From: a virus
IMG/VR virus record: IMGVR_UViG_3300032311_001250
Span: 14,443 to 78,442 of that record
Strand: one strand, 5' to 3'
Length of the DNA stretch: 64,000 nucleotides
Below are positions 42-64,000 of this stretch, piece by piece (within the stretch, counting starts at the first letter, position 1; each line of letters begins with the position of its first letter). The position numbers and the translations under genes were made by a program. The notes beneath the pieces were generated by a model. It saw only the letters and a list, made by a program, of their open reading frames with translations, was not told the DNA's origin and ran no database searches.

Positions 42-3000
42 ATGCAAGGCGGAATGCTTCGTGCGCTTCTTACTAGCGAATCGCTGAGCGCAGCTGAAAA
101 GGCACGACAGATCTCCCTTCTCAGCGGAAGCATTCCCGGCATGCGAGGGGTTCCAACGAGTATCCCAGAGGGCCAGTGGCAGAAGCTTGGGAGCGGGTCA
201 TATCGCGGACCAAAAGACCTCAAGCCAGTGTACGAGTCGCTCAAGCCGCTTATTGAGCAGTATGGTGCCGCTCGAACTATGGGCTACGTTGAACTTGCCA
301 GGGGCTCTTCGCAAGGTTACGGGTATTGGGATCCAAAGAATAAAGGCCTGAATCTTTCTGGGCTTGAGGGACGAAGCTCTGGTGCAATCATGCGAACGTT
401 GGTGCACGAGCTTGCGCATGGATCATTTGGCGAGGCAATGAGGACCGGCTACAAGCAGCCTGGTCAGGTTCAGATTTATGGCCCCAAGGGTGAAAGCATG
501 GGCATGGCGCCGCATGGCGCTGCCTCTGCGCTTCTTGCCGGAGAGCCAACGAGAGTCGGCCACCTTGATCCAAAGTTCTACGAGATGCAGGCAAGGATTC
601 TTAAGTCCGAGGGCGGGCTTTTCTCATCGTTGCTGTTCCATAACTTTGCGCAGGGTGGGTCGCTCCCAGGTGGGCTTGGGTTGCAGGGCACAGGCCCAGA
701 ATATGGTATTGGAAAGCTCGCCGCTCAACTGACTCCACAGCTAGAAAAACTTGCCTCGCCTCAGCAGCTTCTAGCCGCTCAGGCATTTACAAAGACTATG
801 AACACCTTGGTAGGTGGTATTGAAGGATTTGCTAAGGGCAGGGGCAACCTCGAGCAGACCAGCAACGGCATCGCAAAGGCGTTCAGAACGCTTGGAGAAT
901 CGTCCTCTGAATTCAAGCCAGAGTTTTTGCTCGGCGGTGCCGCCCGGCTATCCAACTTCATCCGGCAAAATGGCCAAGAAGGCCTGGCAAAGATGGCCCC
1001 AGAGCAGTTGCGTGCAGGAATCGTCAACTCCATCCTGTCTACCACGACCGGCGCACTCGGTCCGGGTCGGTTGCTGGGGCCAATGTCGCAGGTCAGTGGT
1101 GTTCATGGGCAGATCTCAGAGTTCCTCAAAAATGCCAGCGAAATGGAGAAGGGCTACCTGGCCATGGCGATCAACCCGCAGGCCTTTGTTAAGGAGCCCG
1201 GGGCAAAGCCATTCTACCAGCGTGGAGATGTAGATCATCTACAGAAGGCTCAGGAAATCCTCTCAAACGTTGCGCAGGAGGCAGAACGCGCTGCAAGCGT
1301 CATCCCAGCAGCAACAAATGTTGCCGTTACGCGACGTGCCGGAATGCAGCTTCCTGTTATCAATCGAGGACGCATGCTTCCGGCAGAACACTCGGTTGTT
1401 GTTTCCGGGCAGCGCTATGGGGCCGGTGGTGGTCAGTTTGTAGAAACAACTAATAGCGCCGGAGAGACTGTTCGGCAATTTGTTCCTGCTCAGCGCCTCC
1501 CAGAGGTAACCCCTGTACAGGGACCTATGTCTGGCTCCGGAGCCCTTGTCGTCTACGACCCCCGCGTTGCTGCTCAATACGAGCAGAATAATCCACGCTT
1601 TGCCGGAAGGCCATATGGCGGTCGAGCAGAGACTCAACGCTTTACTCCGAATGCTGCTCTTCTCAACGAGGCATACATGCGCACGCTCAGCTACGGAGGA
1701 CAGGGCTTCTTCGGTCGTGTAGGGTACGAGCGCCTGACAATGCCGGCACAAGAAATTGCAAGCCGGTACGCCGGATTCCGTGGCGCTGTTGGTCAGGCCG
1801 CATACAACAGCCCCCTCAGCCCAATTGGCGGCATGATGAGCCAGTTCCGACAGGCAACAGGAACATATGCCGAGGCCGAAATGGGAAAGCAGCAGCTTCG
1901 CGCGGCGGCCCGCCAGCAATATCAAGGTCAAGTTGCCCAGGCTGATGCATTTGCCAATGCCCAGACTCGATTGAATCGTGTTCTCGGTACTGGCACCGTA
2001 AACTTCCGAGAGCTTGGCAAGGTAATGAGCGAGGTCGGAAACGGCTTTACTTCTGGAGCTCTTTCTTCGCTGAGGTTCGCTGCAAACCTTGCCATTGGAC
2101 AGCAGGCAGTGTTTGCGTTCGTCGGAATGATCAACCACCTCCGTGGCGGTATTATCGAGTTCAACGCAAAACTTGAGGCCGCTGCCGTAGGGTTTAACAC
2201 ACTCTTCCGAAACGCTGGATATACCGTCGAAGATGCGAGCGAGAAGACCAAGGCATTCATTGGCGTTCTTCGTGACTTTGCCAACGTAACAAACTTCCGA
2301 TTCGGCGACCTTGAGACCGCAGCCCTCCGCATGAAGGCATTCGGTTTCGAGGTGGATAACGTTACCGCTGCCGCAAAGAACCAGATGCCAATCCTTGAGG
2401 AAATTCCTAATCCGTGGGCAAAACTGACCGGAGAGGCTAAGAGCTTCCGTGGCGCCCTCGTCAACATCGGCGATGCAGTTGCGGCACTCGGCGCAGAAGA
2501 CGATAAACTCCGCCGTGTCACGTACGCCCTTGGCCAGATGAACTCAGCTGGTCGTGTCTATCAAAACGACATGATGCAGCTGGCAAACGCTGGTATTGCC
2601 GGATATGACATTCTTGCTAAGGCAGTTAAGAAGCAACTCGAGAATGACCCAGAGCTCATGCGCGCAAATAAGGCCATCTATAACAAGTTGCTAAACCCAA
2701 GAACTGCCGTAGAGGAGATCCGCAAACTTGCCCGCGTTGGACGACTCGTTGGACCAGAGGCCGTGCAGGCCATTCTCCAGGGCCTTGGGCAGCAGTACGG
2801 CGGCGGCATGAAGGCGTTCTCCCGTACCTTCCAAGGAGCCATGACAACTCTTGCGGATACGTCGCAATCCCTTATTGCTACCGCGTTCAAGCCACTCTTC
2901 GATGTCACCCGAGATCTTGTCGTTCAGCTTGCCGACGCCTTCCAAACATCTGAGTGGACGGGCAAGGCGGATAATGCCGCCAAGGTCATTCAGAAGGTTG

Positions 3001-6000
3001 CGGAAGCGCTCAGGTCAATGATCCCTGGAACGGCAGACACGATTATGAAGGTCCTTGGTAGCTTCTTTGAAACCTTTGCAAAACTTGGAAGCTCCCTTGG
3101 CAGTACCACAAATGGCTTGGGTAGCTTTGTTAATAACTTTGCTGCAGGAGTAAAGACCATTGGAGATCTTCTTCAAAACAGCGTGATCCGCAACCTTTTG
3201 GTGGCCGGCGTTACCGCAAAACTCGTTATGGGAACAATTGCTTCCAACCCTCTCCTGGCAACCATTGGACTCATTGTGTCTTCCATTGGGGCAATCAGTA
3301 AGGCTATTGAGACAAACGCCTTTGGCTTTGGCGACCTTGCGGCAAAGGTGCAACCTGAATTTGACAAGATCCTTGCAAATATCAGCGGAAACTTCATCCC
3401 GGGAGTAACGAGCGGCCTCTCCGACGGCCTGGGCGCGTTCTTTGCCATCATGGGGGCCTTCATCCGCGCAGTCACTCCGCTATTGGTCGCAATCCTGGAC
3501 ATCATTAGTAACGTTGGGTCTGCTATCAAGCCATTTGCCAGCGTTCTTGGCGTTGCGCTTGCGGCATTTGTTGGCAAGAAAGTCCTGATCGACGGCATGG
3601 CTGCCGCCATGGGTAAGTTTGCCGCCGCAACTGGCGCTGCCGTCGGCAGGGTCACATCGCTTAAGGAAAAGATGGCGCTGTATCAGGCGTTTGGAACCAC
3701 CGGAAGGTACTACGGTGGCGACAAGCTAATGGCGATGCAAACTATGCAGCTGGCCAATGGTCAAAGTCGAGCAGTTCTTGCCCCTGCCGAGCAGGGTGGA
3801 ATTGGTATCGGCGGACCGACTGCCGTTCGCGCAGCCCTTGCCCTGGCGAATCAATTTGCCCTCCTGCAGACCGGAGCCCCACTCCAGACTGCCGGAGTCG
3901 TTCCGCCGCAAACGGTCCTTGACAAAAAGACCGGCCGCCAGGTCGCCAACCCAATGTATCAACAGTTCCTTAATACCGCCGCATTTAATCCGCAGACAAC
4001 TCTGGCCCAGTATCAAGCAATTCGCGGCGCACGAAAAGAAGAAATTATGCAGGAGTTGGCAATTCGAAGGAACAAGTCGCTGACCCCAGAACAGCGCCAG
4101 GCTGCTCTAGCAAATGTGTCAACTGCCGGACGCCAGGCATATCGACAATTCCGTGCAGATACCGGAGGAGCTGGTTCTTCAAGCATGAAGGCCCTTGAGG
4201 CGTCATTTGCCTCAATGAGCCAGGGGATGATTGCCCAGCTCGGTCAGTTTATGGCCAAGATTCGATCCACTGGCCTCAGCTTGGAAACACTAAAGACTAT
4301 TGCCAAGGCGGTTGGATCCCGACTTGCTGGCATGGCAACTGCTGCCATGGGCATGGGCATGCTCTTTAGCGCTATCGGCGGAGCTTTGAATGTTAAGGAG
4401 CTTCAAGCAGTTGGAGATACGCTCACAACGATTGGGTTTGCAACAACAGGTTTGACCATGATGTTTAACGCCTTGACTGTAGCTGTTGGCGCTGCCGCGC
4501 TGCCGCTTATGGCGCTTATGCTTGCAATTGGCGGCCTTATCGCGTTCATCAGTGCCAGCACAACTACCGAGCAGGATAAGAAAGGCGCAAAGCAAGTAAG
4601 CGAGATTATGGATCTCCGTGATCAGATGGTTGCAATGTACGGAGAGGAAGAGGCAAAGCGCAGGTTCCCGGACTACTTCCCAGAAAATCTTACGTTGCCG
4701 GAGAAAAAGTTGCGCATGGCCCTTCCCGGTGAAACCCCAGACTCTTATGATTGGATTAACAATATCGCATTGAAACTTGATTATGACCCAAAGGATCTTG
4801 CCGCTGTCCGAAGTCAGTTCGGATTTACCGATGAGGATTTTGCAAAGACAAAAGCCTATTTTGAGATGATGAATACCGATACCGGTCGAATTCTCTCCTT
4901 GTTCCAGGAAGGAAAAACGGCCGAGCAGATTGCTGAGATTACCGGTCTACCAATTGATCGAATCAAGTTGCAGCTAAAGGAATTCTACGAGACAACTGGT
5001 TCTGACAATAAGGACTTTATTGCCAAGGTGCTTAGCGATAGCCTTGATGCAACCGGCGCTGCCCTGAAAGAAGCGCAGGAGGCTTACGAAAAGGCAATGG
5101 AGCCGTTCCAGAAGAACCTTAGCCGCCTGACTTCTCGAACCCAGGAAGTCATGCAGGCGCTCTTTGAGAGCGAGAAGAAGGCCCTGGAAGATGAGAAGAA
5201 GGCTGCGCTAGAAAATACGTTGGTAATGTACAACGGCGAGCAGGTCCGACTTGGCGTGCTGCAGCAGCAATATGATGCCATGAAGCTTCAGCGCGAAGAA
5301 ATGGACCGCATGGCCGAACTTGAGAAACAGCGCACAGCTGCCGCAGAGGCCGCGCTCAATATCTTTGACGCCAGTGTTGATCCGCTTGAGCGAGCTCGAG
5401 CGGCTCGAGAGTCCGCTCGAGATCTTTTCAATCAAGTTGGAACGTCAAGGCTTGACGAGATGCAGCGGGCGATTACCGCCGGCCAGGGGAATGTCGCCTA
5501 TACAGAAACCGAGGCATTCTACAACGAGAAGATGGATGCCCTACAAAAGGATCAGGCCGAGCGAATGCGCACGGTCCAGGAGCAAATCGACGACTTGATG
5601 CAGAAGATCAAGGAAGGCAAGATTGGGACCGCCGCCGCACAGCAGCAGTTCAAGGATATCTTTGCGCAAGCCGGTCTTGACCTCGACGTTGCCCAGACAC
5701 AAGGGTACTCGTTTATGTCAGCCTTTGGCGATGGCTTCATGGATGCGATGAACACAAATATTAAGGGCGTATTCTCCAAGCTGCCTGGACTTATCATGAA
5801 GGCGTTGGAAATGGTCAAGCAGGACAAGCTGTATCAGCAGGCCCTTGACGCCTATAACGCCATCGTCACGATGGGTGACAAGATTACTGGCAAGGAATAC
5901 AAGTCTAAGTATCTGCAGCCGCGCCTTGCTGGTTTGAACACTCTCTACAAAGATGCCGTTAAGTACCTTACCAGTGGCGAGGGCGTAAAGGCTGCCGGTG

Positions 6001-7118
6001 GCCTTGATAAGGCGCAAGCCATGATGGCCACACTGCTCAAGAAGAAGATCGAACTGGAAAACATGATCTCGGCAACTAGCGATACGGCTGTTATTGACAA
6101 GTCACTTGCATTGGCTGGAGACTCCTCATATCGCAGTGACATTATGGGTATCCAGTTGCCCGGCATGGGAAATCGCTCGCTTGTCGACTACCTCAGGCTT
6201 TACATGGGCTACGCTTCTCGTGACCGCGATAATTACATGAACAATCCGTATCTTGCCGGTGGCGCGGCTGGCGGTACAATCACGACTGCCGGTCAGTTCA
6301 TGGTGGGCGAGCGCGGGCCGGAGATGATTGAAGTTGGGCCAAACGGCATTCGCGTCGTCCCAAACCACAAGCTTCCGTCCTGGCTGCGCTCGTCTGCCGG
6401 GGCTCTTGGCGCTGTCAATATGGGTCTGGGTGGCTATGCCTTTGGCACTGGTTCGGGCGACTCCGGAATGCGTGGACTGAAGTTTGACCCTAAACACATT
6501 AACCCGGAACACATTAGAAAATATGGCAACGTGTCAATGGCCGGAACCTGGCAGTCTGCCCTTGGCATGCTATTGATGCGTGCCGGGGCACCTATTGCCG
6601 CCCTTGCGTCAAGGGCCGGTAACGGACTTACTCGTGGAATGGAGTGGATGATTGGACCAGGACCACTTGGCAAGATGGCCGATAAGATTGTATCACTTGG
6701 CAGTAGCATCAATAATATTGATCCAGAAAATCTTGGACCAAAAATGAAGTTAATTAGCACGCTCATGAAACCGCAAATGGACATGATGGCATTTGCGCAA
6801 GACGTTGGGTATACCAAGTATATGTCTACTGATTTCTTGAAAACTATGGCAGCTGCTGGTGGCACAATCGGCCTCACCGGGTTAGAAGCACAAGGCTTGA
6901 TGGGTGCCCCTGGGTTCCTCATGAATCTTCTCAATGGTGGCCCACGATCAGTAACGCCACCAAACGTGCATGCACACCCATCTCGATCACCAATTAGTGG
7001 TACAGTGAACATTCACAACCCGCAACTCAACTCTGCGGCCGACATTGACCGACTCGCCGAGCGCGTTGCGGAGGCTCAAGTGCGAGCACTTCGAAACTCC
7101 GGCTATGTAAAGAGGTAA
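42..7118 (+). CDS. Tail tape measure protein (5'-truncated; frame is open from base 3)
   Basis: >2358 aa, Ala/Gly-rich and helical; tape-measure domain (EFNAKLEAAAVGFNTL...FANVTNFRFGDLETAALRMKAFGF); C-terminal GG...VGERGPE motif; HELAH motif near N-terminus; followed by tail genes. Confidence 0.93.
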   Translation: MQGGMLRALLTSESLSAAEKARQISLLSGSIPGMRGVPTSIPEGQWQKLGSGSYRGPKDLKPVYESLKPLIEQYGAARTMGYVELARGSSQGYGYWDPKNKGLNLSGLEGRSSGAIMRTLVHELAHGSFGEAMRTGYKQPGQVQIYGPKGESMGMAPHGAASALLAGEPTRVGHLDPKFYEMQARILKSEGGLFSSLLFHNFAQGGSLPGGLGLQGTGPEYGIGKLAAQLTPQLEKLASPQQLLAAQAFTKTMNTLVGGIEGFAKGRGNLEQTSNGIAKAFRTLGESSSEFKPEFLLGGAARLSNFIRQNGQEGLAKMAPEQLRAGIVNSILSTTTGALGPGRLLGPMSQVSGVHGQISEFLKNASEMEKGYLAMAINPQAFVKEPGAKPFYQRGDVDHLQKAQEILSNVAQEAERAASVIPAATNVAVTRRAGMQLPVINRGRMLPAEHSVVVSGQRYGAGGGQFVETTNSAGETVRQFVPAQRLPEVTPVQGPMSGSGALVVYDPRVAAQYEQNNPRFAGRPYGGRAETQRFTPNAALLNEAYMRTLSYGGQGFFGRVGYERLTMPAQEIASRYAGFRGAVGQAAYNSPLSPIGGMMSQFRQATGTYAEAEMGKQQLRAAARQQYQGQVAQADAFANAQTRLNRVLGTGTVNFRELGKVMSEVGNGFTSGALSSLRFAANLAIGQQAVFAFVGMINHLRGGIIEFNAKLEAAAVGFNTLFRNAGYTVEDASEKTKAFIGVLRDFANVTNFRFGDLETAALRMKAFGFEVDNVTAAAKNQMPILEEIPNPWAKLTGEAKSFRGALVNIGDAVAALGAEDDKLRRVTYALGQMNSAGRVYQNDMMQLANAGIAGYDILAKAVKKQLENDPELMRANKAIYNKLLNPRTAVEEIRKLARVGRLVGPEAVQAILQGLGQQYGGGMKAFSRTFQGAMTTLADTSQSLIATAFKPLFDVTRDLVVQLADAFQTSEWTGKADNAAKVIQKVAEALRSMIPGTADTIMKVLGSFFETFAKLGSSLGSTTNGLGSFVNNFAAGVKTIGDLLQNSVIRNLLVAGVTAKLVMGTIASNPLLATIGLIVSSIGAISKAIETNAFGFGDLAAKVQPEFDKILANISGNFIPGVTSGLSDGLGAFFAIMGAFIRAVTPLLVAILDIISNVGSAIKPFASVLGVALAAFVGKKVLIDGMAAAMGKFAAATGAAVGRVTSLKEKMALYQAFGTTGRYYGGDKLMAMQTMQLANGQSRAVLAPAEQGGIGIGGPTAVRAALALANQFALLQTGAPLQTAGVVPPQTVLDKKTGRQVANPMYQQFLNTAAFNPQTTLAQYQAIRGARKEEIMQELAIRRNKSLTPEQRQAALANVSTAGRQAYRQFRADTGGAGSSSMKALEASFASMSQGMIAQLGQFMAKIRSTGLSLETLKTIAKAVGSRLAGMATAAMGMGMLFSAIGGALNVKELQAVGDTLTTIGFATTGLTMMFNALTVAVGAAALPLMALMLAIGGLIAFISASTTTEQDKKGAKQVSEIMDLRDQMVAMYGEEEAKRRFPDYFPENLTLPEKKLRMALPGETPDSYDWINNIALKLDYDPKDLAAVRSQFGFTDEDFAKTKAYFEMMNTDTGRILSLFQEGKTAEQIAEITGLPIDRIKLQLKEFYETTGSDNKDFIAKVLSDSLDATGAALKEAQEAYEKAMEPFQKNLSRLTSRTQEVMQALFESEKKALEDEKKAALENTLVMYNGEQVRLGVLQQQYDAMKLQREEMDRMAELEKQRTAAAEAALNIFDASVDPLERARAARESARDLFNQVGTSRLDEMQRAITAGQGNVAYTETEAFYNEKMDALQKDQAERMRTVQEQIDDLMQKIKEGKIGTAAAQQQFKDIFAQAGLDLDVAQTQGYSFMSAFGDGFMDAMNTNIKGVFSKLPGLIMKALEMVKQDKLYQQALDAYNAIVTMGDKITGKEYKSKYLQPRLAGLNTLYKDAVKYLTSGEGVKAAGGLDKAQAMMATLLKKKIELENMISATSDTAVIDKSLALAGDSSYRSDIMGIQLPGMGNRSLVDYLRLYMGYASRDRDNYMNNPYLAGGAAGGTITTAGQFMVGERGPEMIEVGPNGIRVVPNHKLPSWLRSSAGALGAVNMGLGGYAFGTGSGDSGMRGLKFDPKHINPEHIRKYGNVSMAGTWQSALGMLLMRAGAPIAALASRAGNGLTRGMEWMIGPGPLGKMADKIVSLGSSINNIDPENLGPKMKLISTLMKPQMDMMAFAQDVGYTKYMSTDFLKTMAAAGGTIGLTGLEAQGLMGAPGFLMNLLNGGPRSVTPPNVHAHPSRSPISGTVNIHNPQLNSAADIDRLAERVAEAQVRALRNSGYVKR

Positions 7119-7121
7119 CTA

Positions 7122-10100
7122 ATGGCCAGCTATACTGGAACAATCACTGTCAAGATTCAACCAAAGCTGCTCGACTATACCTCGCTGTCCGATTTCGTTG
7201 ATATCACTAACCGCGTGATCTTTTCCGAGGGAGGAGATTCGTCGTTTACGTTCACGCAGAGCTCTGAGGGGTCACAGGCAGGTGCTTCGTTCTCCCTGTT
7301 CACCATGTTCCCCATCTCAACAACGAAGTGGTCATCGTATACCGGAGCAACAGACTTGATCAAGGCGCAAGCTGCGCTTAATGACCCTACCTTTGACTTC
7401 GAAGTGCCGGCTAGGTCTGAGGTGCAAATCTACGAGAACGGCAGCCTGATCTTCGGCGGCATCGTGACCGAAGTGTCTCGGGAGCGAACGGGTGGATCCA
7501 TCACCACGCGCATTACCTGCCAAGACTATACTGCGCTCCTTGACGAGGTGGTAATTGACCGGTACAAGGCCCCCTACGACGTAAAGGACTACCAGATCAT
7601 CAAGGGCGGCTACGCCACCGACCCCGAAAAGAACGGCCTGTCGGTCATCAAGCTCGTTGATGGTGGCTCCGGCAGCACCCGAGAAATCACCGTTTCCCTG
7701 GAAGATGCGCACGACATGATTGTTGGGCAGCAGTTCACCATTGACCGATCTAGCTCATACAACGGGACATGGACTGTTTCTTCAATTCTTTCTGAGGTGT
7801 CAATTAAGGCAACAAAGTCTGGAACCGCTCCATATACCGCAGGCGATGAGACATCCGCCCGGCTAACGCCATATACGGCATCGATTTTTTCAGACATCCG
7901 AACGACCGATGCCTACAGCGGCCTATCGTTTAGCCTTGGAATCAATGCAACTAGTAGCTATGTCGAAGAGAATCTTAACGATACGCGCTTTAGCCCCATT
8001 TCGTATTTGCCGGACTCATCGTACCCAGATAAACTCGGGGCAAAGTTGTATCTGCCATTTTCCGATTACAAAGTTAGCAACTATCGATTCTCTGCCGACC
8101 CCAAGGCGGCTGATCTTACCAATGAGCTGCGTCTCTTTGGTTTGCAAAGCACTATTAATGAGCGAAACCTTGTCACCTCTATCAGTTCCTATAACACGAC
8201 GAGCAATTATGTTGACGTCACAACTCTTGGTTCACACAACATTATCAGCGGCGAATACGTCAGCGTTGTCAACCCGCTTCTTGATTCTGGAAAGACTTCT
8301 TTTTCATCGAGCTTCCAGGCAGATCGACAAAGTTCATCGGTGGTTCGCATGGCATCACCTACTGATCCGGCGATTGACGTAAAGAAATACGCAATCACTG
8401 CGGCAAGTGGGGACGGAACATATATTACCTATACCTGCACAAATACATTTCTTCCTGGAGATGTGGTGGGAATCAGCGGGATTACGGAAACTAGCACCGC
8501 CGGATACGGCTCGCTTAACATTGTTTCCACCGTAGTGGAAGAAGCCACATCAACAACGTTCAAGATTAAAAACCCAGGAAATCAGACTGCCACCAGCTTT
8601 ACAGGGGCCTATGCCTACACGACCTATATCCAACTGGCCAAGGATCGAGTGCAAAACCTTTATTCCGACTCTAAGGTGTATCAAATCCTTGCGGCAAACC
8701 GAGAAGGAAACGTTTCGCAAATTTGGTACAATTCAACCACACCGCAGTATGCAGTAAATGAGTGCGTATTCATTGAGGGGCTTCCTGATTTTGACGCTCG
8801 CGTTATTGTTTCTGAGACGTCCGGTACCACCCCCGATGCTTTCACCGGAAGTCCATGGAGGATTTACAAATACGGTAGGTATAACAACGTCGGAGTAGTC
8901 GGCGTCGCTAAGAACAAAAGCCCCTATGTTCCTGGATACAAGAATGGAAATTACCTTTCCTCCGGGCACCCGTTTATTGTTGGGGCATCAATCGTTATCT
9001 CCGGACTAACCGGATCAGCTGCAACTGTCAACGGAACATTTACTATTACGAGGGTAAAAGGAAATTTGGTGTTCTTTAACAGTTCTGGAGGCAACACGGG
9101 GTCTTCCACAACCTATGTTAAAGATGTTTCCAGCAAGTCAGCCAGGCTTGCCAGCTCTATCGTTTACAGCACCGGTGGTGTTTCTTGGATTAAATTTACC
9201 GATAGCCGGGCTGACGCAGAAAAAACACCAGAATCTATGCCTAAAACAGCGGCAATCCGTCAGTTTAATTTTGCCTGGCCAGCGATCTCTGGTGGTCGCT
9301 CGGCCGGAACCCCTAGCGCTTCCTTTATCACGGCCCCAGAAGATACGCTTTCGTACATTGGCGGCAGGCAAGCTGTAAAGTTCACCTCATCGTCATACAG
9401 CGGCATTTCTTCAAGGATTAAGTCAGAAATTTCTTTTGTGGAAATTGCATCTAATGTGGTCACTATTACCACAAAAGCTGCTCATCGCTTCAGGGTTGGT
9501 CAGTTTGTTGTAGTGCAGGCGGCGACAAAAACTACCGTTCAGGGCGGCTATATCATTACCGATGTCCCAACCCCAACAACGTTTACATATAGCCTTACTA
9601 CTTCAAACTATTCAAAAACGGCGGATAGTGGTCCAACGTTTGTCATGGATACCGGTTTTGCCGCTCTATCAAAATCGTTCAGCGCAATCATTATGGTGCA
9701 GCCTAGCTCATTCCCGTCTTCTGGTAACTACAAGACCATTTGGCATCATGGCTCAATTGCGACGAGTCAGCGACGAGAGCTTATGATTGACTCTACCGGC
9801 CAGATTGTGTTTAGTACCGTTCATGGAACTTACTACAATACCGGCCTTACGCTTACCGCCGACGTTCCGGCATTGATCTACGTGTCCCTTGATTCCTCAA
9901 CCGGAACCACTAACTTGGTCATTTCCAAGAATGACGAAACCGTGTACACGGCAAGTGCAACAAACTATGGAGGAACAACAAACGTAGATGGTGAGCCAAG
10001 GGCAAATCTCACTGTTGGCTACGGCTGGACAGATTCCAGCGCTGCCACCAGGTTCTATGACGGCTTGATCGGCGACATGATTGTCATTGACCGTGTTCTT

Positions 10101-12242
10101 ACCTCAACAGAACGTTCTCAGCTAATTTCTTGGATGGCGCATACCTTTACCCTTGCTGGATCGCTTTTGTCTAGCACCTCTACGTATAAACTTCTTGCCG
10201 ACAATCCCGGGAAGGCCGAGGTTTCTAAGGTCAAAGAGCCATTTAACGGCATGACGCTACGCCAGGCAATGGACTATATCTCGAAGAAAACTGGATGCCA
10301 GTATTGGGTTGACGCCAATAAGTACCTGCACTATATCAAGCGAGAGGTCCAAAACTTGGTAGAGAACCCAACTTTTGAAGATCAATTCGGCAATGCAAGC
10401 CTGACCGACTGGGATTTTGACGCAGGGTTCACTGTCTCCTCGAGGACAGAGGGGCCATACGGCTATGGATATGCCGCAACGGCCTCTGGAACCGCAGAGC
10501 TAATTGCTCGCTCAAAGTTTTTTACTGTTACCTCAGGAGAGAAGTATTTCGCTTCGGCAATGATGAAGACAAGCAATAAGTCGAAGTCCCGACTGGAAGT
10601 TCGCTTCTATAACTCTAGCGATGTGCAGGTAGGGGGAGAAAAGGAGATTGGGTCGGCAGTATCCACTAACAATTCTTGGGAAAAGATGTGGGGCATGGTT
10701 GCCGTTCCGGGAACTCCTGGCATCGTAAAAGCTGCGTTGATTTACCATCATACTTCGCACAGCAGCACCTATACGGACTACTACGCTAATCCGCTTGTCG
10801 TGAAGCTTACCGGAGACTTTGGGTTTGCTGACTACGGCACCGCACCAGGTTCAACGGTAGAGATGCTGTTTGATACATCCCTAAACGCAATTATGCCACT
10901 CAAGACGTTTGAGGCGCCATCCAACATCTCTCAACACGGCAGCATGGCAAACCGTGTCTACATTTATGCTAAGCCGCTTGCAACGAATGCTACGGGTGAT
11001 CTGATCTCGGCAAATGTCGTTACCGGACAAGTGCTGAAGTACACGTTTGACTATGTCCAGGGCGTCTGGAATACACATGGAAAAATCATTGAATCTTCAA
11101 CCGTCAACAAGGATATTGAGACCGCTGAGGATGCGGCGTTGGCCGCAAGCGCAATCTTTAGCGATTCCGGCAAGACTATTGAATCTTACGACTTTGACCA
11201 TCCAAACTCTGCCTCCGATGGACGACTGACTGTTGGAACCGTTATTCCATACTTCTGGAGCGAAGTCGGCGTTATTGAGCCGCTTGTAGTCAAGTCACAA
11301 ACAACTAAATTCATTGGCGGAGAGGCCTACTACTCCGTGCAACTTGCCGGAGAGCCGGCACTGCAACGAAACGCAATTGTGCTTGTGCAGCGAGAAAACC
11401 TTACGGTCAATCTTGGCCCTGGCCAGCTTGCTTTGACTCGACCAACTAAGGTCAAAAATATTGTTGTCAACTCTATTGATGTTGACGGAAAATCTCAGAC
11501 AGTTGACTTGAACGCCAAGATTCAATGGAGCTTTGATACGACTGATCCAAGGAACAAGTTAGTAAAAAGGTTTGAAATTGAGCGACGTTCACAGGATTTG
11601 AACAAAAACATTCTTGGTAAAAAGGCACTTGCAAGTGGCACTGCTCTTTCTCGCGGGTCGGCTGTTGTTGGCGCAGAGTCTAGCTGCTATGTAAAGCTTG
11701 TTGGCTCTAACTCTATTAGCGCAGAGGACATCATCACTATTGCCAACTGGGTAAACCCAGCAAAAAAGAATTTGGCCGCCAATCCTACGCTTAACGGGAG
11801 CTGGGTTGTTGATCATGTGTCTTATAGCAAGACAAGTAAGGCAACAACCGTATACTTCAATATGTATGCATCGGAAACCTCGCCAATCGCAGCCTACAGC
11901 GCAGCAAAGGGTTCTGTCCCAACCAAATTTACTGTCAGCTGGTATGAGACTGTCAAGGCTGGTGTAACCGGGAACAAGTGGGCAGCGCTAGATACCGTTC
12001 TAATTGGGTCAACAAGCTACACGGATAGCAAGAGCGACTATAAGCACCGCTACCAGTATAGAATCCGTGCTGTTGCAGAAACTGAAGATGGTGGTAAACT
12101 GTATGGCGATTGGTCATACGTTCCGGCAACGGCCATCAGCAGCCTGGCAGATACAGCATGGCTGTATATCAATCGCAGCCTTGACCTTTCCTCTGATGGC
12201 GGAGCTGGGGCAGATGCGGTATTAACGGAGGCCACCACATGA
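7122..12242 (+). CDS. Large minor tail/baseplate hub protein with repeated beta modules, LamG-like and CBM-like segments
   Basis: 1706 aa directly after TMP; IFGGIV..V...ITCQDY hub-like motif; repeated H-x-x-x-x-G-x-x-V modules; LamG-like FYDGLIGDMIVIDRVLT; NLVENPTFE; Fn3-like YQYRIRAV end. Confidence 0.8.
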   Translation: MASYTGTITVKIQPKLLDYTSLSDFVDITNRVIFSEGGDSSFTFTQSSEGSQAGASFSLFTMFPISTTKWSSYTGATDLIKAQAALNDPTFDFEVPARSEVQIYENGSLIFGGIVTEVSRERTGGSITTRITCQDYTALLDEVVIDRYKAPYDVKDYQIIKGGYATDPEKNGLSVIKLVDGGSGSTREITVSLEDAHDMIVGQQFTIDRSSSYNGTWTVSSILSEVSIKATKSGTAPYTAGDETSARLTPYTASIFSDIRTTDAYSGLSFSLGINATSSYVEENLNDTRFSPISYLPDSSYPDKLGAKLYLPFSDYKVSNYRFSADPKAADLTNELRLFGLQSTINERNLVTSISSYNTTSNYVDVTTLGSHNIISGEYVSVVNPLLDSGKTSFSSSFQADRQSSSVVRMASPTDPAIDVKKYAITAASGDGTYITYTCTNTFLPGDVVGISGITETSTAGYGSLNIVSTVVEEATSTTFKIKNPGNQTATSFTGAYAYTTYIQLAKDRVQNLYSDSKVYQILAANREGNVSQIWYNSTTPQYAVNECVFIEGLPDFDARVIVSETSGTTPDAFTGSPWRIYKYGRYNNVGVVGVAKNKSPYVPGYKNGNYLSSGHPFIVGASIVISGLTGSAATVNGTFTITRVKGNLVFFNSSGGNTGSSTTYVKDVSSKSARLASSIVYSTGGVSWIKFTDSRADAEKTPESMPKTAAIRQFNFAWPAISGGRSAGTPSASFITAPEDTLSYIGGRQAVKFTSSSYSGISSRIKSEISFVEIASNVVTITTKAAHRFRVGQFVVVQAATKTTVQGGYIITDVPTPTTFTYSLTTSNYSKTADSGPTFVMDTGFAALSKSFSAIIMVQPSSFPSSGNYKTIWHHGSIATSQRRELMIDSTGQIVFSTVHGTYYNTGLTLTADVPALIYVSLDSSTGTTNLVISKNDETVYTASATNYGGTTNVDGEPRANLTVGYGWTDSSAATRFYDGLIGDMIVIDRVLTSTERSQLISWMAHTFTLAGSLLSSTSTYKLLADNPGKAEVSKVKEPFNGMTLRQAMDYISKKTGCQYWVDANKYLHYIKREVQNLVENPTFEDQFGNASLTDWDFDAGFTVSSRTEGPYGYGYAATASGTAELIARSKFFTVTSGEKYFASAMMKTSNKSKSRLEVRFYNSSDVQVGGEKEIGSAVSTNNSWEKMWGMVAVPGTPGIVKAALIYHHTSHSSTYTDYYANPLVVKLTGDFGFADYGTAPGSTVEMLFDTSLNAIMPLKTFEAPSNISQHGSMANRVYIYAKPLATNATGDLISANVVTGQVLKYTFDYVQGVWNTHGKIIESSTVNKDIETAEDAALAASAIFSDSGKTIESYDFDHPNSASDGRLTVGTVIPYFWSEVGVIEPLVVKSQTTKFIGGEAYYSVQLAGEPALQRNAIVLVQRENLTVNLGPGQLALTRPTKVKNIVVNSIDVDGKSQTVDLNAKIQWSFDTTDPRNKLVKRFEIERRSQDLNKNILGKKALASGTALSRGSAVVGAESSCYVKLVGSNSISAEDIITIANWVNPAKKNLAANPTLNGSWVVDHVSYSKTSKATTVYFNMYASETSPIAAYSAAKGSVPTKFTVSWYETVKAGVTGNKWAALDTVLIGSTSYTDSKSDYKHRYQYRIRAVAETEDGGKLYGDWSYVPATAISSLADTAWLYINRSLDLSSDGGAGADAVLTEATT

Positions 12243-13866: not shown

Positions 13867-16800
13867 ATGGCAACAAAGCGCATTTACGTCACCAAAGATG
13901 CAAGCGTAGCTCTCCGCGATGGGACTGACTCTCTTGGCCAGGGGGCTGGAGACAACCTTGTTGTTGGGTATGGAACATGGCTCTATCGTAGCTTACTGTA
14001 TTTCCCTGTTGACTTTACCGACATGACGGCGATTAGCTCCGCCACAATTACGTTGTTTGCCTATAGCCGGTCTGGGCAGACCAATGCTAACTGGGAATAC
14101 GGCTCCGGTATGAGGATTAAGCGCCTGACCTCATCTTGGTCCGAGGGGACCAAGGGGGCAGACGGTATTTGGTGGAACAATAACGCAGTTGCTTGGGCCA
14201 ACCAACCAAGCGCAACAACGAGCAACCAGGTTACAGATACATCAACGGTTGGAAATTCTCGCCCATCGCATGGAAAGGCATACACCTTCACGATTACGGA
14301 TATCGTAAAGCAGTGGGCGCCATCTACAACAGTAACAGGCGGTGGAGATCAGACTAATCACGGCATTCGATTGGAGATGGTCAATGAGACCAGCACAAGC
14401 CCTGACAGCATCGAGTTCTGCTCCCGCGAGGATAACTCGATCAACGGCGGGACCTCCTATGACGCATATATTGACATTACCTACACGGCGGCGGTCTCTG
14501 TTACAAATCCCATCAATGCTGCGTCAGCGCCAACTTCCTCTAAAATTGCAACCATCGTCAATCTTGATGATGCGAACAACTGGACTGGTGCAACAAAGCT
14601 GGCAAGGCCGCAGCTTTCCTGGACATTTACCCCGTCAACGTCAACTCCTGCGGCTCAAGATGAATGGCGCGTTCGGATCTACAGCGCCTCGAGCGCTGGC
14701 AATACCATCTTTGACTCTGGCTGGGTAACCGATGGCTCGCATGCTGCGGATACATCTGTTGACATCCCTCTGAATATTTCTTCTTCTGGCGCCCCACATA
14801 TGCCTGGCGGTTTGACCGCTACCGTTAGCAACGTCACCTGGTCATCTAACACGGCGACCTATACCACCTCAGCGGCACACGGTCTTGATACCGGGATGTA
14901 CGTCAACGTTACTGGGCTTAATGAGTCGCAGTTGAACATCTCTAACGCTGAAATTACCGTCACTGGATCTACCACATTCACAGCGACAGCTAGCTACCCA
15001 GGAGCAATCACTGGGACAAGCGGAACGGTTTCAACAATCTGGGCATCCGGGTATAAAGGACTGGTTAATAACACAAACTATTGGTGGACCATTCAAACCC
15101 GAGATGTAAACGGCCTTGAGGCAAGCGAATCGAGCCGAACACAATTTAAAGTACTCTTTTCTAATCAGCAACTTCAGTACGCATACCCAGGCGGAACAGC
15201 CTCAACTTTTGTTCATAACATTGGGTCAACTCCGGCTGGAACTTCAGTTGAGCGCCTGTACGGAACAACAAACACGACCGGTGCGACTCCGTCAACGTGG
15301 TATTCCTCGCTTTCTGAGGCGCTGACAAATCGAGGCAGTAACGCATATATTGTCGTTGCGGTTCGCATGGGCGTGCTCAATAACAGCAATACAGCAATTT
15401 CTGACCCAACAGTCTCTGGCCTTTCACTGTCTTATGTGGCTGCTGTGGCCCGAACTCCAGACAAGTGGGCAACAAGTTCTGCAAATATTACTGCTGGGCT
15501 TTCTGACGAGATTCGTCGGTTTGGTACCCAAGCAGCCAAGATTACGGCAGTAACTGCCGCCACGCATTCAATTAAGGCCTATCGGGCTTCATCTGGCGAC
15601 GGCGTCGGGGTTGTTCCGAATACAAACTACACGTTCTCTTTCTATGTGTATGCGGGCAGTGTCTCTGGAACGATTACTGGAAAGGTATACGCTGGAAGCA
15701 CTCTTCTTGCTACATCTGATGTTCACACGGCTTTCGATACCGACAATGAGGGCTGGCGACGCATGTACGTCAGTTTCCATTCCGGAGGAAATACGTCAGT
15801 TGAGCCATATATTTATATTGATGCCACTGCGACCAACACGTCGTTCTATGTCGATGGCTCCATGCTTGAAGAGGGAACTGTTATCCGCTCGTACACTCCT
15901 GGCCTCGTCAACTCCCCCGCGCTAGTTGAAGGCGGAGGCATCCAGGTTGATGCAAGCAAGGGTGGAACGTTCCGACTACGTGGATCTGCTGGTTTACCAC
16001 GAGATGTAATTCAACTTGGTTCTAACGGCCTTGATTTTGGAACAACAAGCCCTGTTTCTATTTATCAAACTGCAGATGGCAGCAATTCTCTAACCGTTTC
16101 TGGCGCGCTTTCTGCTACTAGCACTGTGTCGGGCGCAACACTTTCTGCAACTGGGGCTGTTTCTGGCGCAACACTTTCTGCAACTGGGACATTGACACTT
16201 GGCTCCTCAATTATCCATCAAGCGACAGACAACGTTCAAGAGTTCATAATTGCTGAAGCAGTATCACTGGCTGGACGTACAGCAAGCTTAGCTACCATAA
16301 CCACTACATATGATCATCAGCTTCTTTCTGGTCAGCTTGTTACCGTAGCCTTAACGTCTGGACCAACCGGATATGCCGCGCTTAATGGGTCTTGGACTAT
16401 TGCGGTAACTGGTACAACAACGTTTACCTATACGACTGGCACGAGCGGCACGATCACCTCTGGCGCGGCAGTCGGGACCGTTACAACAGTTGCTGCTGGT
16501 GTACAGCCACATGGACTTTATATTCCGACTGCCAAAGCCGTTGTGTTTGAGGGAACAACAGATAATGTGCTGGAAACGTTCCTTGTTGCTGCTGAAGCAA
16601 CCACCACAGACAAAACTATTACGCTTCCAGATGCCACTGGAACAGTTCAATTAACTGGGCAAACAATCACTCTTGGAACTGACTTAACTGGTAGCGTAAC
16701 CCTGGCAAATGGCGCAATGACACTCAACGCTTCAGTTACCGACAATAGTCATAACCACACAAGTTCTACTATTTCTGGACTTGTACTTGGAACTGACGTT

Positions 16801-53763: not shown

Positions 53764-54258
53764 ATGGCAAAGAGGAAGGCTAATAGCATTGCCGAAACCG
53801 GTATGTGGAACGCCTATGAGTATTCGGTGAAGCGCACCGCACGCAGCAACAAGTCGGCGGTCATCACGAGTCCACGCGACCTTGCGGCTCTGTTCCGCGA
53901 GTTCGCTGACGCGGAGATGAGTGAGGCCTTGTTCGTCGTGTCGTTCGGTGGGCGCAACAACCTGCTTGGGATTCATCGTATCTACTCTGGTACGGCGACC
54001 GGAACTTCGGTGCGGATTGGCGAACTGCTCCGCTCTGCGCTGATGATGGGCGCGGTCGGTATGGCGTTGGTTCACAACCACCCTTCGGGCGACCATCAGC
54101 CGTCTGATGAGGACATTAGGCTCACGGCTGATGTGGCGAAGGCCGCCACGCTGCTTGATGTTCAGTTCCTTGACCATCTGGTCGTCGGAGCGAACGGAGC
54201 GTTCACGAGTATCCGCTCACAGAAGCCGAGTATGTTTGAGGACAGCACCCTGAACTAG
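53764..54258 (+). CDS. radC: RadC-like JAB/MPN domain protein
   Basis: ITSPRD...E.L...VHNHPSGD..PSDEDIRLT...LDHLVVG. Confidence 0.92.
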   Translation: MAKRKANSIAETGMWNAYEYSVKRTARSNKSAVITSPRDLAALFREFADAEMSEALFVVSFGGRNNLLGIHRIYSGTATGTSVRIGELLRSALMMGAVGMALVHNHPSGDHQPSDEDIRLTADVAKAATLLDVQFLDHLVVGANGAFTSIRSQKPSMFEDSTLN

Positions 54259-54263
54259 CTACG

Positions 54264-54338
54264 ACTCGTCGGGGGGTGTCCTCCCCCCCACGAGTCCTAT
54301 CCCCCCGGCGGAGTCCTCCCGCCGGGGGATTTTCTTTG
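54264..54338 (+). terminator. Tandem hairpins ending in an intrinsic terminator
   Basis: GACTCGT-G6/C7-ACGAGTC, then CCCCCGGCGG/CCGCCGGGGG-ATTTTCTTT. Confidence 0.8.
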
Positions 54339-54499
54339 TAGCTCGACTTATTCATTATCCAGGCCGTATACCCCCGCACCCCCATACCCCCAGACCCCCA
54401 TACCGGCTGTTGCCCGGACTTCGAATAGTTAAGATACCTTACACATCTCTTATCCTGAACTTAGTTGACGAGATGATACCGGTGTGAGAAACTCCGTAT

Positions 54500-54931
54500 G
54501 TCGGAGCAATCCTAGGAGAAGCTACCGACTAGGTGAGAGTGTTGGGAACGAAGCACGCAGCCGAAAAATGCGAAGTGGTTCAGGCGAGTGATGGCCTCTA
54601 ATTGCTGCTGTAAATGCGGGAGAGGAAGCTTGGGAAGCGGAAGCCGGGGCAATGATCAAAACCGGTGAAAGCGACCAACCTACCGGAATCTCTGGGAGCG
54701 ACGGCTCTCAGGGGTTCCGGGACATAATGAATCCGTTCCGGGTAGAGGCCGGATAGTTGGTAGATAGACGAACTACCCGCGACGATAAGGATACCGGGCA
54801 TTTGGACTAACCATCAGGGTGGCTGGTATCAGGGGGCAACCGGAAGGCGAAGCTCCTCTCCGCAAGGGGATAAGCGTCAGTAGCGCGATAGCTGGGGGGT
54901 TGAGTCAGATGTGGTGTCTGGCCGACCCCCC
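54500..54931 (+). ncRNA. Candidate large (~430 nt) structured non-coding RNA
   Basis: TTGACG-N17-GAAACT; 5' GUCGG/CCGAC stem; many helices with G-U pairs and GNRA loops; terminal G6/C6 hairpin; no sense ORF. Confidence 0.7.
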
Positions 54932-55011
54932 TTCATACTTGACGACAGGAATCGTTGGGTGTAGTGTTCGTAGTGCCGGTGCTTGCCGGTATGAAAGGAA
55001 GGAGAGGACAG

Positions 55012-63928: not shown

Positions 63929-64000
63929 TGGCTCCGGAGGTAGGGCTCGAACCTACGACCAGGCGATTAACAGTCGCCCGCTCTACCACTGAGCTACTCC
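63929..64000 (-). tRNA. trnN: tRNA-Asn(GTT), about 3 nt of the 5' end lie beyond the window
   Basis: GGAGTAGCTCAGTGGTAGAGC-GGGCGA-CTGTTAA-TCGCC-TGGTC-GTAGG-TTCGAGC-CCTAC-CTCCGGAGCCA. Confidence 0.95.

Follow-up and report, generated by a model that had tools for sequence, protein, structure and literature searches.

What is made from the 432 nucleotides (54500–54931) that lie behind a promoter of their own between protein genes of an uncultured phage? A preliminary description had proposed a single ornate RNA of about 430 nt, i.e., a compact member of a class such as GOLLD or ROOL, or a new one. We analyzed the element within its window, by which we mean the whole stretch of 64,000 nucleotides under study (positions 14,443 to 78,442 of IMG/VR record IMGVR_UViG_3300032311_001250) and to which all positions refer unless another locus is named. 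The source contig is linear and viral with a length of 78,442 bp and an estimated completeness of about 90%. It is that of a tailed phage, with a terminase, tail-fibre repeats and two giant ORFs. The terminase has a best identity below 30% (about 29%) to cultured phages. The giant ORFs (2358 and 1706 codons) lie side by side on the + strand at 42–12242, and the first of them may begin upstream of the window.

The element was described as lying downstream of radC, and indeed it sits between a RadC-like gene and an operon of small proteins. The features that frame it are as follows.

53764–54258, RadC-like gene (Pfam RadC, E = 1e-29)
54302–54328, the RadC-like gene's own terminator, from the terminator scan
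54465–54493, + strand, RNA promoter: −35 TTGACG at 54465–54470, 17-nt spacer, TG at 54485–54486, −10 GAAACT at 54488–54493
54939–54967, + strand, promoter of the downstream small-protein operon (TTGACG, 17 nt, TAGTGT), outside the RNA

The operon promoter is kept in close homologues. A family search with the other neighbouring proteins, including those of the downstream operon, found no informative family match, hence the neighbourhood gave no functional lead. The only tRNA of the window is 9 kb off at 63929–64003, i.e., there is no adjacent tRNA island.

The DNA upstream of the RNA promoter has particularities of its own. At the 3' end of the RadC-like gene (54262–54336), there are two tandem G/C-rich hairpins, the second of which is the gene's terminator. 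Both have UCCUCC loops, which are complementary to the Shine-Dalgarno sequence and kept in homologues. Against Rfam, this segment gave sub-threshold scores for ar14 (23 bits, gathering score 59) and sX13 (21 bits, gathering score 50). Between the terminator and the RNA promoter, a C5-N3 array with four C5 runs is found at 54371–54399; its C-runs are kept in homologues, where their number and spacing vary and some deletions occur.

Transcription had been proposed to start at G54500 from TTGACG-N17-GAAACT, and the sequence agrees with this assignment. The TG at 54485–54486 makes the promoter one of the extended −10 type, and the putative start G54500, the first base of GUCGG, lies 7 nt past the −10 box. 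The promoter is kept in all close homologues, being conserved as TTGAC-N17-(TG)AGAAACT across 12 unique sequences. A strict promoter scan did not list 54465–54493 because its −10 box matches at only three of six positions; the equivalent promoters of the stand-alone genes described below score 10/12 in a consensus scan. Folding of the + strand gave −175.8 kcal/mol (z = −4.10), and none of 100 shuffles was as good. The − strand fold (z = −1.22) did not stand out from shuffles to such a degree. Sense frames in the element have at most 35 codons and none of them is conserved among homologues, in agreement with the initial statement that there is no sense ORF.

Homologues were reached via the RadC gene, which led to 18 related viral loci. 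The entire region is kept at 73–87% identity in 17 of these, and it is conserved in about 20 related viral contigs. Twelve unique homologue sequences were aligned; with two metagenome copies added, the close-clade set on which the consensus fold was tested comprised 13 sequences. Pairing holds for 98.9% of cells in this set, and changes on both sides were counted for 12 pairs, compared with 6.2 ± 1.4 in column shuffles (0/500). When partners were slid along the close-clade alignment, only 0–3 such pairs were obtained. The check that had been suggested, i.e., collecting homologues and searching them for covariation, hence turned out positive, with compensatory changes exceeding those in shuffles. 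We conclude that 54500–54931 is a real folded non-coding RNA on the + strand, and promoter, fold z-score and covariation all support the earlier view that it is separately transcribed and highly structured. As read from the sequence, the transcript would be 432 nt long with its ends at these positions, and would include read-through from its first to its second half.

The helices that had been drawn initially fared differently. Among the best supported are the 17-bp hairpin at 54683–54720, with four pairs that change on both sides and six more on one side, and the GAUACCGG/CUGGUAUC stem (54790/54823), in which all eight pairs co-vary. The GUCGG/CCGAC stem opening at G54500 was also seen to pair, and the final G6/C6 hairpin, said to lie just before the next promoter, is real (54894–54931, followed by the promoter at 54939–54967). 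Two long-range helices lose pairs in homologues without compensation, AUUGCU/GGCAAU (54601/54648) and ACCAAC/GUUGGU (54674/54756), the latter being doubtful also because it would link two modules that are transcribed separately elsewhere. Of the GCAA-capped hairpins, the one at 54858–54869 was retained, whereas the segment near 54835 is a helix strand followed by a CC-GGAA-GG hairpin.

The two modules are denoted A and B in the following. Module A comprises the first half of the element and has these parts.

54500–54720, + strand, module A, about 221 nt; a stand-alone gene in other phages, with homologues in three clades
54500–54529, + strand, hairpin P1; GUCGG (54500–54504) pairs with CCGAC (54525–54529)
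54510–54517, + strand, loop 1 palindrome, the 8-nt UCCUAGGA in the P1 apical loop
54530–54594, + strand, A core, the most conserved part, with UAGGUGAG, a GGAACGA loop and the hairpin CGCA/UGCG (54556–54572)
54595–54599 with 54621–54625, + strand, helix CCUCU/AGAGG
54626–54682, + strand, long hairpin of A; upper stem GCCGG (54643–54647) with CCGGU (54662–54666)
54653–54658, + strand, loop 2 palindrome, UGAUCA in the apical loop of the long hairpin
54683–54720, + strand, 17-bp hairpin with GACG loop, homologue of A's intrinsic terminator, here with no U-tract
54721–54731, + strand, A–B junction, site of an insert of about 83 nt in 8/13 close variants

The three clades are the window's own, the L019/L046 clade and the clade of stand-alone genes; covariation of A was read from MAFFT alignments. 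The core hardly varies within the close clade and can still be recognised in the two distant ones; for want of variation, its pairing cannot be judged by covariation. In the neighbouring CCUCU/AGAGG helix, C-G is swapped for G-C among members of the close clade, and the aligned place in the distant clade reads CCGCU/AGCGG. The stem of the long hairpin co-varies, and the 17-bp hairpin co-varies heavily between clades. A cross-clade RNAalifold of A retains the terminator hairpin and the stem of the second hairpin; of its 33 pairs, 19 are altered on both sides in one sequence or more. At seven loci (L091, L093, L094, L095, L087, L107, L108) a U-rich tail follows the GACG-loop hairpin, with the next promoter behind it. 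From this tail in the stand-alone genes, we conclude that the hairpin is A's terminator.

Both apical loops of A contain palindromes. For loop 1, the window's clade has UCCUAGGA, the stand-alone clade AUCCUAGGAU or UCUAGA and the L019 clade GCGUACGC, i.e., this loop remains palindromic under three different sequences. Loop 2 occurs as UGAUCA, UGGCCA, GGCC, AUUGGCCAAU and UGAUUA, the last being self-complementary only with G-U, and in two clades it is just a 4-nt or G-U-dependent palindrome. For these palindromes, which were noticed post hoc, shuffles gave p values of about 0.006–0.01 for loop 1 in two clades and of 0.07–0.6 for several variants of loop 2. There is no overall palindrome excess (4 vs 6.1 ± 2.4 in shuffles), only the placement in apical loops stands out. 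Loop 1 has a competing fold, a GGA-GNRA-UCC mini-hairpin (GCAA in the window, GAGA in L003), and part of it may alternatively pair with the adjacent UAGG.

Large ornate RNAs of phages and bacteria, namely GOLLD, ROOL and OLE, form RNA-only homo-oligomers (PMC12286853). Kretsch et al. described a loop tetranucleotide in OLE and GOLLD that switches between the palindromes GGCC, GAUC and AGCU (PMC12286853). As neighbouring bases of a loop are unable to pair with each other in the same molecule, they took these switches as support for symmetric kissing loops, such as L9.3 of OLE and L21a of GOLLD (PMC12286853). Module A resembles them in that its second loop shows a GGCC to GAUC switch and in the persistent palindrome of its first loop. 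We therefore put forward tentatively, as a testable guess that is plausible without being favoured, that module A might self-associate via its two self-complementary apical loops.

Module B follows the junction and extends to the end of the element.

54732–54931, + strand, module B, about 200 nt; a wider family of 27 distinct sequences
54732–54879, + strand, B core, with hairpins 54737–54753 and 54759–54777 and a four-way junction
54781–54784 with 54875–54878, + strand, closing helix of the junction, GACG/CGUC
54790–54830, + strand, junction arm 1, a variable stem
54833–54856, + strand, junction arm 2, GGGGC/GCUCC enclosing CC-GGAA-GG
54858–54869, + strand, junction arm 3, CUCC-GCAA-GGGG
54882–54893, + strand, small linker hairpin AGC-GCGAUA-GCU, joining the B core to the terminal hairpin
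54894–54931, + strand, terminal G6...C6 hairpin, likely the 3' end of the transcript

A covariance model (R1) was built from nine B cores with 147 positions and 36 pairs, and it scored 163.9 bits on the window's stretch. It yielded 59 matches, 27 of them distinct, including weak ones to reduced copies in the L019 clade; one further variant was found later. In the B alignment 97.0% of cells pair compared with 76.9% in shuffles, a percentage inflated by fitting the alignment to the model. Among the 27 distinct sequences, two-sided changes were found in 26 of the 36 pairs. The covariation score was 0.539 vs 0.182 in shuffles (0/500) and at most 0.06 with slid partners, and the compensation can be seen directly in the raw sequences. 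The joining strands of the four-way junction are invariant. Its closing helix GACG/CGUC becomes CACG/CGUG in the L019 clade, a swap that favours this local helix over the long-range helix obtained by single-sequence folding. In other B copies, we read by eye a GCGAUA or GCGAAA linker loop on differing stems. The tail of the terminal hairpin, UUCAUACUU, is narrowly under the threshold of the terminator scan; clear U-tracts are present on the corresponding hairpins in other copies of B. In one locus (L083:9380–9480, − strand), about ten degenerate TTATG-containing repeats were seen directly after B's terminator.

Database searches matched the element to no known family. With Rfam 15, the whole window gave nothing except a tRNA at the gathering score, and inside 54500–54931 there was no match at E ≤ 10. 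Eight related loci likewise had no Rfam match, and stand-alone A plus B gave only hairpin-level chance matches far below threshold. The Rfam check that had been recommended was thus run and no family matched, and the earlier failure to see RNase P, group I, group II or tmRNA was borne out by the Rfam models and ARAGORN, which find none. Membership in GOLLD, ROOL, OLE, raiA or HEARO was rejected, as none reaches the Rfam gathering threshold. A CsrB/RsmZ-type protein sponge was rejected, too: the 15 GGA motifs are no excess over dinucleotide shuffles (15.3 ± 2.7). DNA searches of GenBank phages with the region and two other B copies found nothing, i.e., no cultured phage in these searches carries A or B. 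Pattern scans of cellular genomes gave chance matches in coding regions only, and most of the extra matches in viral and metagenome pattern scans were chance as well. The window holds no paralogues of the element; copies of ACGAACTA elsewhere in it are unrelated. Modules A and B are new relative to Rfam 15. A catalogue of 10,006 candidate structured RNAs, many of them terminator-linked, was predicted from IMG/VR and other viral sequences (PMC10690425). Like the present analysis, it draws on uncultured viral contigs and uses covariation as criterion, and it may or may not include A and B.

The arrangement of both modules differs between phages. Four settings were found for B: some copies have a promoter to themselves, others come immediately behind the stop codons of unrelated genes, two complete genomes contain B where the tested A motif is missing, and in the window it is fused to A. 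It has its own promoter and terminator at L091, L093, L096 and L087, and A has its own promoter and U-tract terminator at seven loci. In L091, A and B each received a promoter in the consensus scan (10/12 and 9/12, respectively, that of B with TG), and a terminator was called downstream of B; three promoters were found in this locus vs 0.3 expected. Scanning for the B-half motif revealed a lone copy right after an ORF stop on a 57-kb contig from another phage lineage, and many more copies appeared with a looser motif. ORFs upstream of B copies are unrelated to each other. Profile searches gave loci with the 3' half alone and loci with the halves in either order, 0.8–2 kb apart. Two 100%-complete phage genomes (43 and 46 kb) have B, with the conserved A motif absent, and every contig that carries A has B within about 2 kb.

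Small RNAs derived from 3'-UTRs of enterobacteria are short, Hfq-dependent and act by base-pairing. B is like them in standing behind its own promoter or forming the last 200 nt of an mRNA, always ending at a terminator. B differs from them in its compact multi-junction fold, in which the junction strands do not vary, and in the lack of an evident seed. A small RNA that binds a protein or a ligand would be the most likely role of B, although our confidence in this assignment stays slightly below even.

We consider it unlikely that B instead acts in cis on transcription, either by riboswitch-like control of its own terminator or as a put/EAR-like read-through element. Such a role would fit its constant position directly upstream of an intrinsic terminator, the aptamer-like invariance of its junction nucleotides and the terminator-rich surroundings, which consist of promoter-gene-terminator cassettes. 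Several phages, however, have a strong own promoter, then B, a terminator and a new promoter, so that B leads no gene there; moreover, the flanking genes are unrelated. A riboswitch proper would be an aptamer with an expression platform in the leader of a consistent set of regulated genes; B does not fit this definition, as unrelated ORFs or a promoter of its own precede it, and the terminator behind it is in turn followed by another promoter.

How A and B come to be joined in the window is suggested by the junction at 54721–54731. Eight of 13 close variants carry the insert there. In L004 it forms a 12-bp UUCG hairpin that is called by the terminator scan. The 3' arm of the insert hairpin contains TTGACT, 17 nt and TACTCT or TAGTCT, a promoter-like motif that is below the promoter scan threshold and resembles the downstream operon promoter. 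The window and four other variants (5/13) lack the insert. As there is neither an insert nor a U-tract on A's hairpin, a fused 432-nt A–B product would be expected, and we infer that this transcript is a lineage-specific fusion.

Two observations on joints may be added. The junction 54721–54735 shares the same 11 bases, UAAUGAAUCCG, with the ORF-to-B junction of an unrelated phage (L082:8400–8420), where they include the ORF's stop codons; the shared bases may be a recombination joint. Stand-alone A genes have AAUCCG just before their terminator.

The single unit of about 430 nt thus had to be given up, since A and B are separate genes with their own promoters and terminators in related phages, and in place of one large ornate RNA, a compact GOLLD/ROOL-like member, the element holds two modules that are autonomous, about 220 and 200 nt in length. 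We regard it as probable that 54500–54931 is one transcription unit of two independent structured ncRNA genes of uncultured phages. Module A would extend from the promoter start to the GACG-capped hairpin, which is its intrinsic terminator in other phages. Module B would consist of a two-hairpin domain, the four-way junction with invariant joining strands and the terminator hairpin. RNA polymerase would pass A's U-less hairpin and yield the 432-nt A–B RNA. Both modules would presumably act in trans as folded RNAs early in infection, with B as a portable 3'-terminal RNA domain that is transcribed from a promoter of its own or else forms the tail of an upstream transcript.

That both halves nevertheless fold together into a single RNA of about 430 nt, i.e., a compact relative of GOLLD or ROOL, appears very unlikely. 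The minimum free energy fold and the close-clade RNAalifold do draw inter-half pairs (UGAUG/CGUCA and GCG/CGC), and no A-carrying contig has more than about 2 kb between A and B. These pairs never vary in the close clade, however, and sequences of the L019 clade are unable to form them; there, the local GACG/CGUC helix has changed with compensation to CACG/CGUG. Moreover, other phages have A and B as separate genes, B folds alone and none of the Rfam models for large ornate RNAs matches. Taken as two genes, A and B are like GOLLD and ROOL in being phage-encoded orphan structured RNAs that were recognised by covariation. Unlike GOLLD, ROOL and OLE, they match none of the respective Rfam models in sequence or structure. 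They also differ in size and setting: GOLLD and ROOL have 500–800 nt or more and often lie beside tRNA genes, whereas A and B have about 200–220 nt and no tRNA island. A further reading, which we find rather unlikely, would join a self-assembling A of about 220 nt (a dimer or larger, held by two kissing loops) and the portable 3' domain B in an RNA-only device for early infection, a small cousin of ROOL and GOLLD.

The promoter/stem-loop (PeSL) cassettes of T4-type phages, in which strong sigma-70-like promoters are joined to GGGG...CCCC stem-loops, offer a comparison for the borders of the modules (PMC2839356). Their stem-loops terminate upstream transcription, flank small genes and mediate modular shuffling (PMC2839356). 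Similarly, terminal hairpins here abut or contain the next −35 box, as found at 54894–54931 with the promoter from 54939 and likewise in the L019 clade and the A/B insert, where the next −35 is part of the hairpin's 3' arm. The insert of the 8/13 variants is such a unit, and A and B are shuffled between sites. Promoters joined to G-run/C-run stem-loops at shuffled borders were found here, which characterises the edges of A and B rather than the RNAs as such. PeSLs are short regulatory junctions, whereas A and B are multi-helix RNAs of about 200 nt that are carried as cassette cargo, and the phages here are unrelated to T4. PeSL-like module borders account for the varied A/B arrangements and for the fusion. 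In the stand-alone clade (L091:5820–5870 and 6140–6190; L093:262–310; L095:190–230), we observed a strict, repeated cassette junction: behind each terminator come a second hairpin, near-perfectly palindromic and centred on CGG/GCC, the bases TAGAAC and the next TTGAC promoter, in this order.

The same borders could be taken to mean that the region is conserved as DNA, i.e., as a replication origin or primer transcript, or as a recombination-prone pile of cassettes with no RNA function. Terminal hairpins with a −35 in or beside the stem do resemble PeSL cassettes (PMC2839356), and the modules have clearly moved between sites. Pairing is kept, however, via G-U pairs and compensation that work on the + strand only, a feature that would not be under selection in a DNA site. 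Phages with unrelated flanks share the internal multi-helix junctions, and the GC skew near 54500–54931 shows no switch; we hence regard conservation at the DNA level as highly improbable. To the proposal that the region encodes one or more small proteins we give next to no credence: GTG, TTG or ATG frames of 20–50 codons occur in most copies and one of them recurs within a distant A clade, but frames, starts and stops differ between clades so that no ORF is conserved across them, close variants differ by indels that are no multiple of three, the recurring frame is invariant at the nucleotide level with no third-position variation, and substitutions are concentrated in compensating pairs.

To our knowledge, few phage structured RNA families of the GOLLD/ROOL kind are known. 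A and B, as two independent RNA genes, add two further families, each well supported by covariation. With about 220 nt, A is small enough for quick biochemical and structural tests. The fold of B occurs as a free-standing gene, as a tail of unrelated mRNAs and in an RNA fusion, which is unusual for an RNA domain. Moreover, the promoter/stem-loop cassettes of these phages shuffle RNA genes and not protein genes alone. The main value of the finding lies in the palindromic loops of A and in the portability of B.
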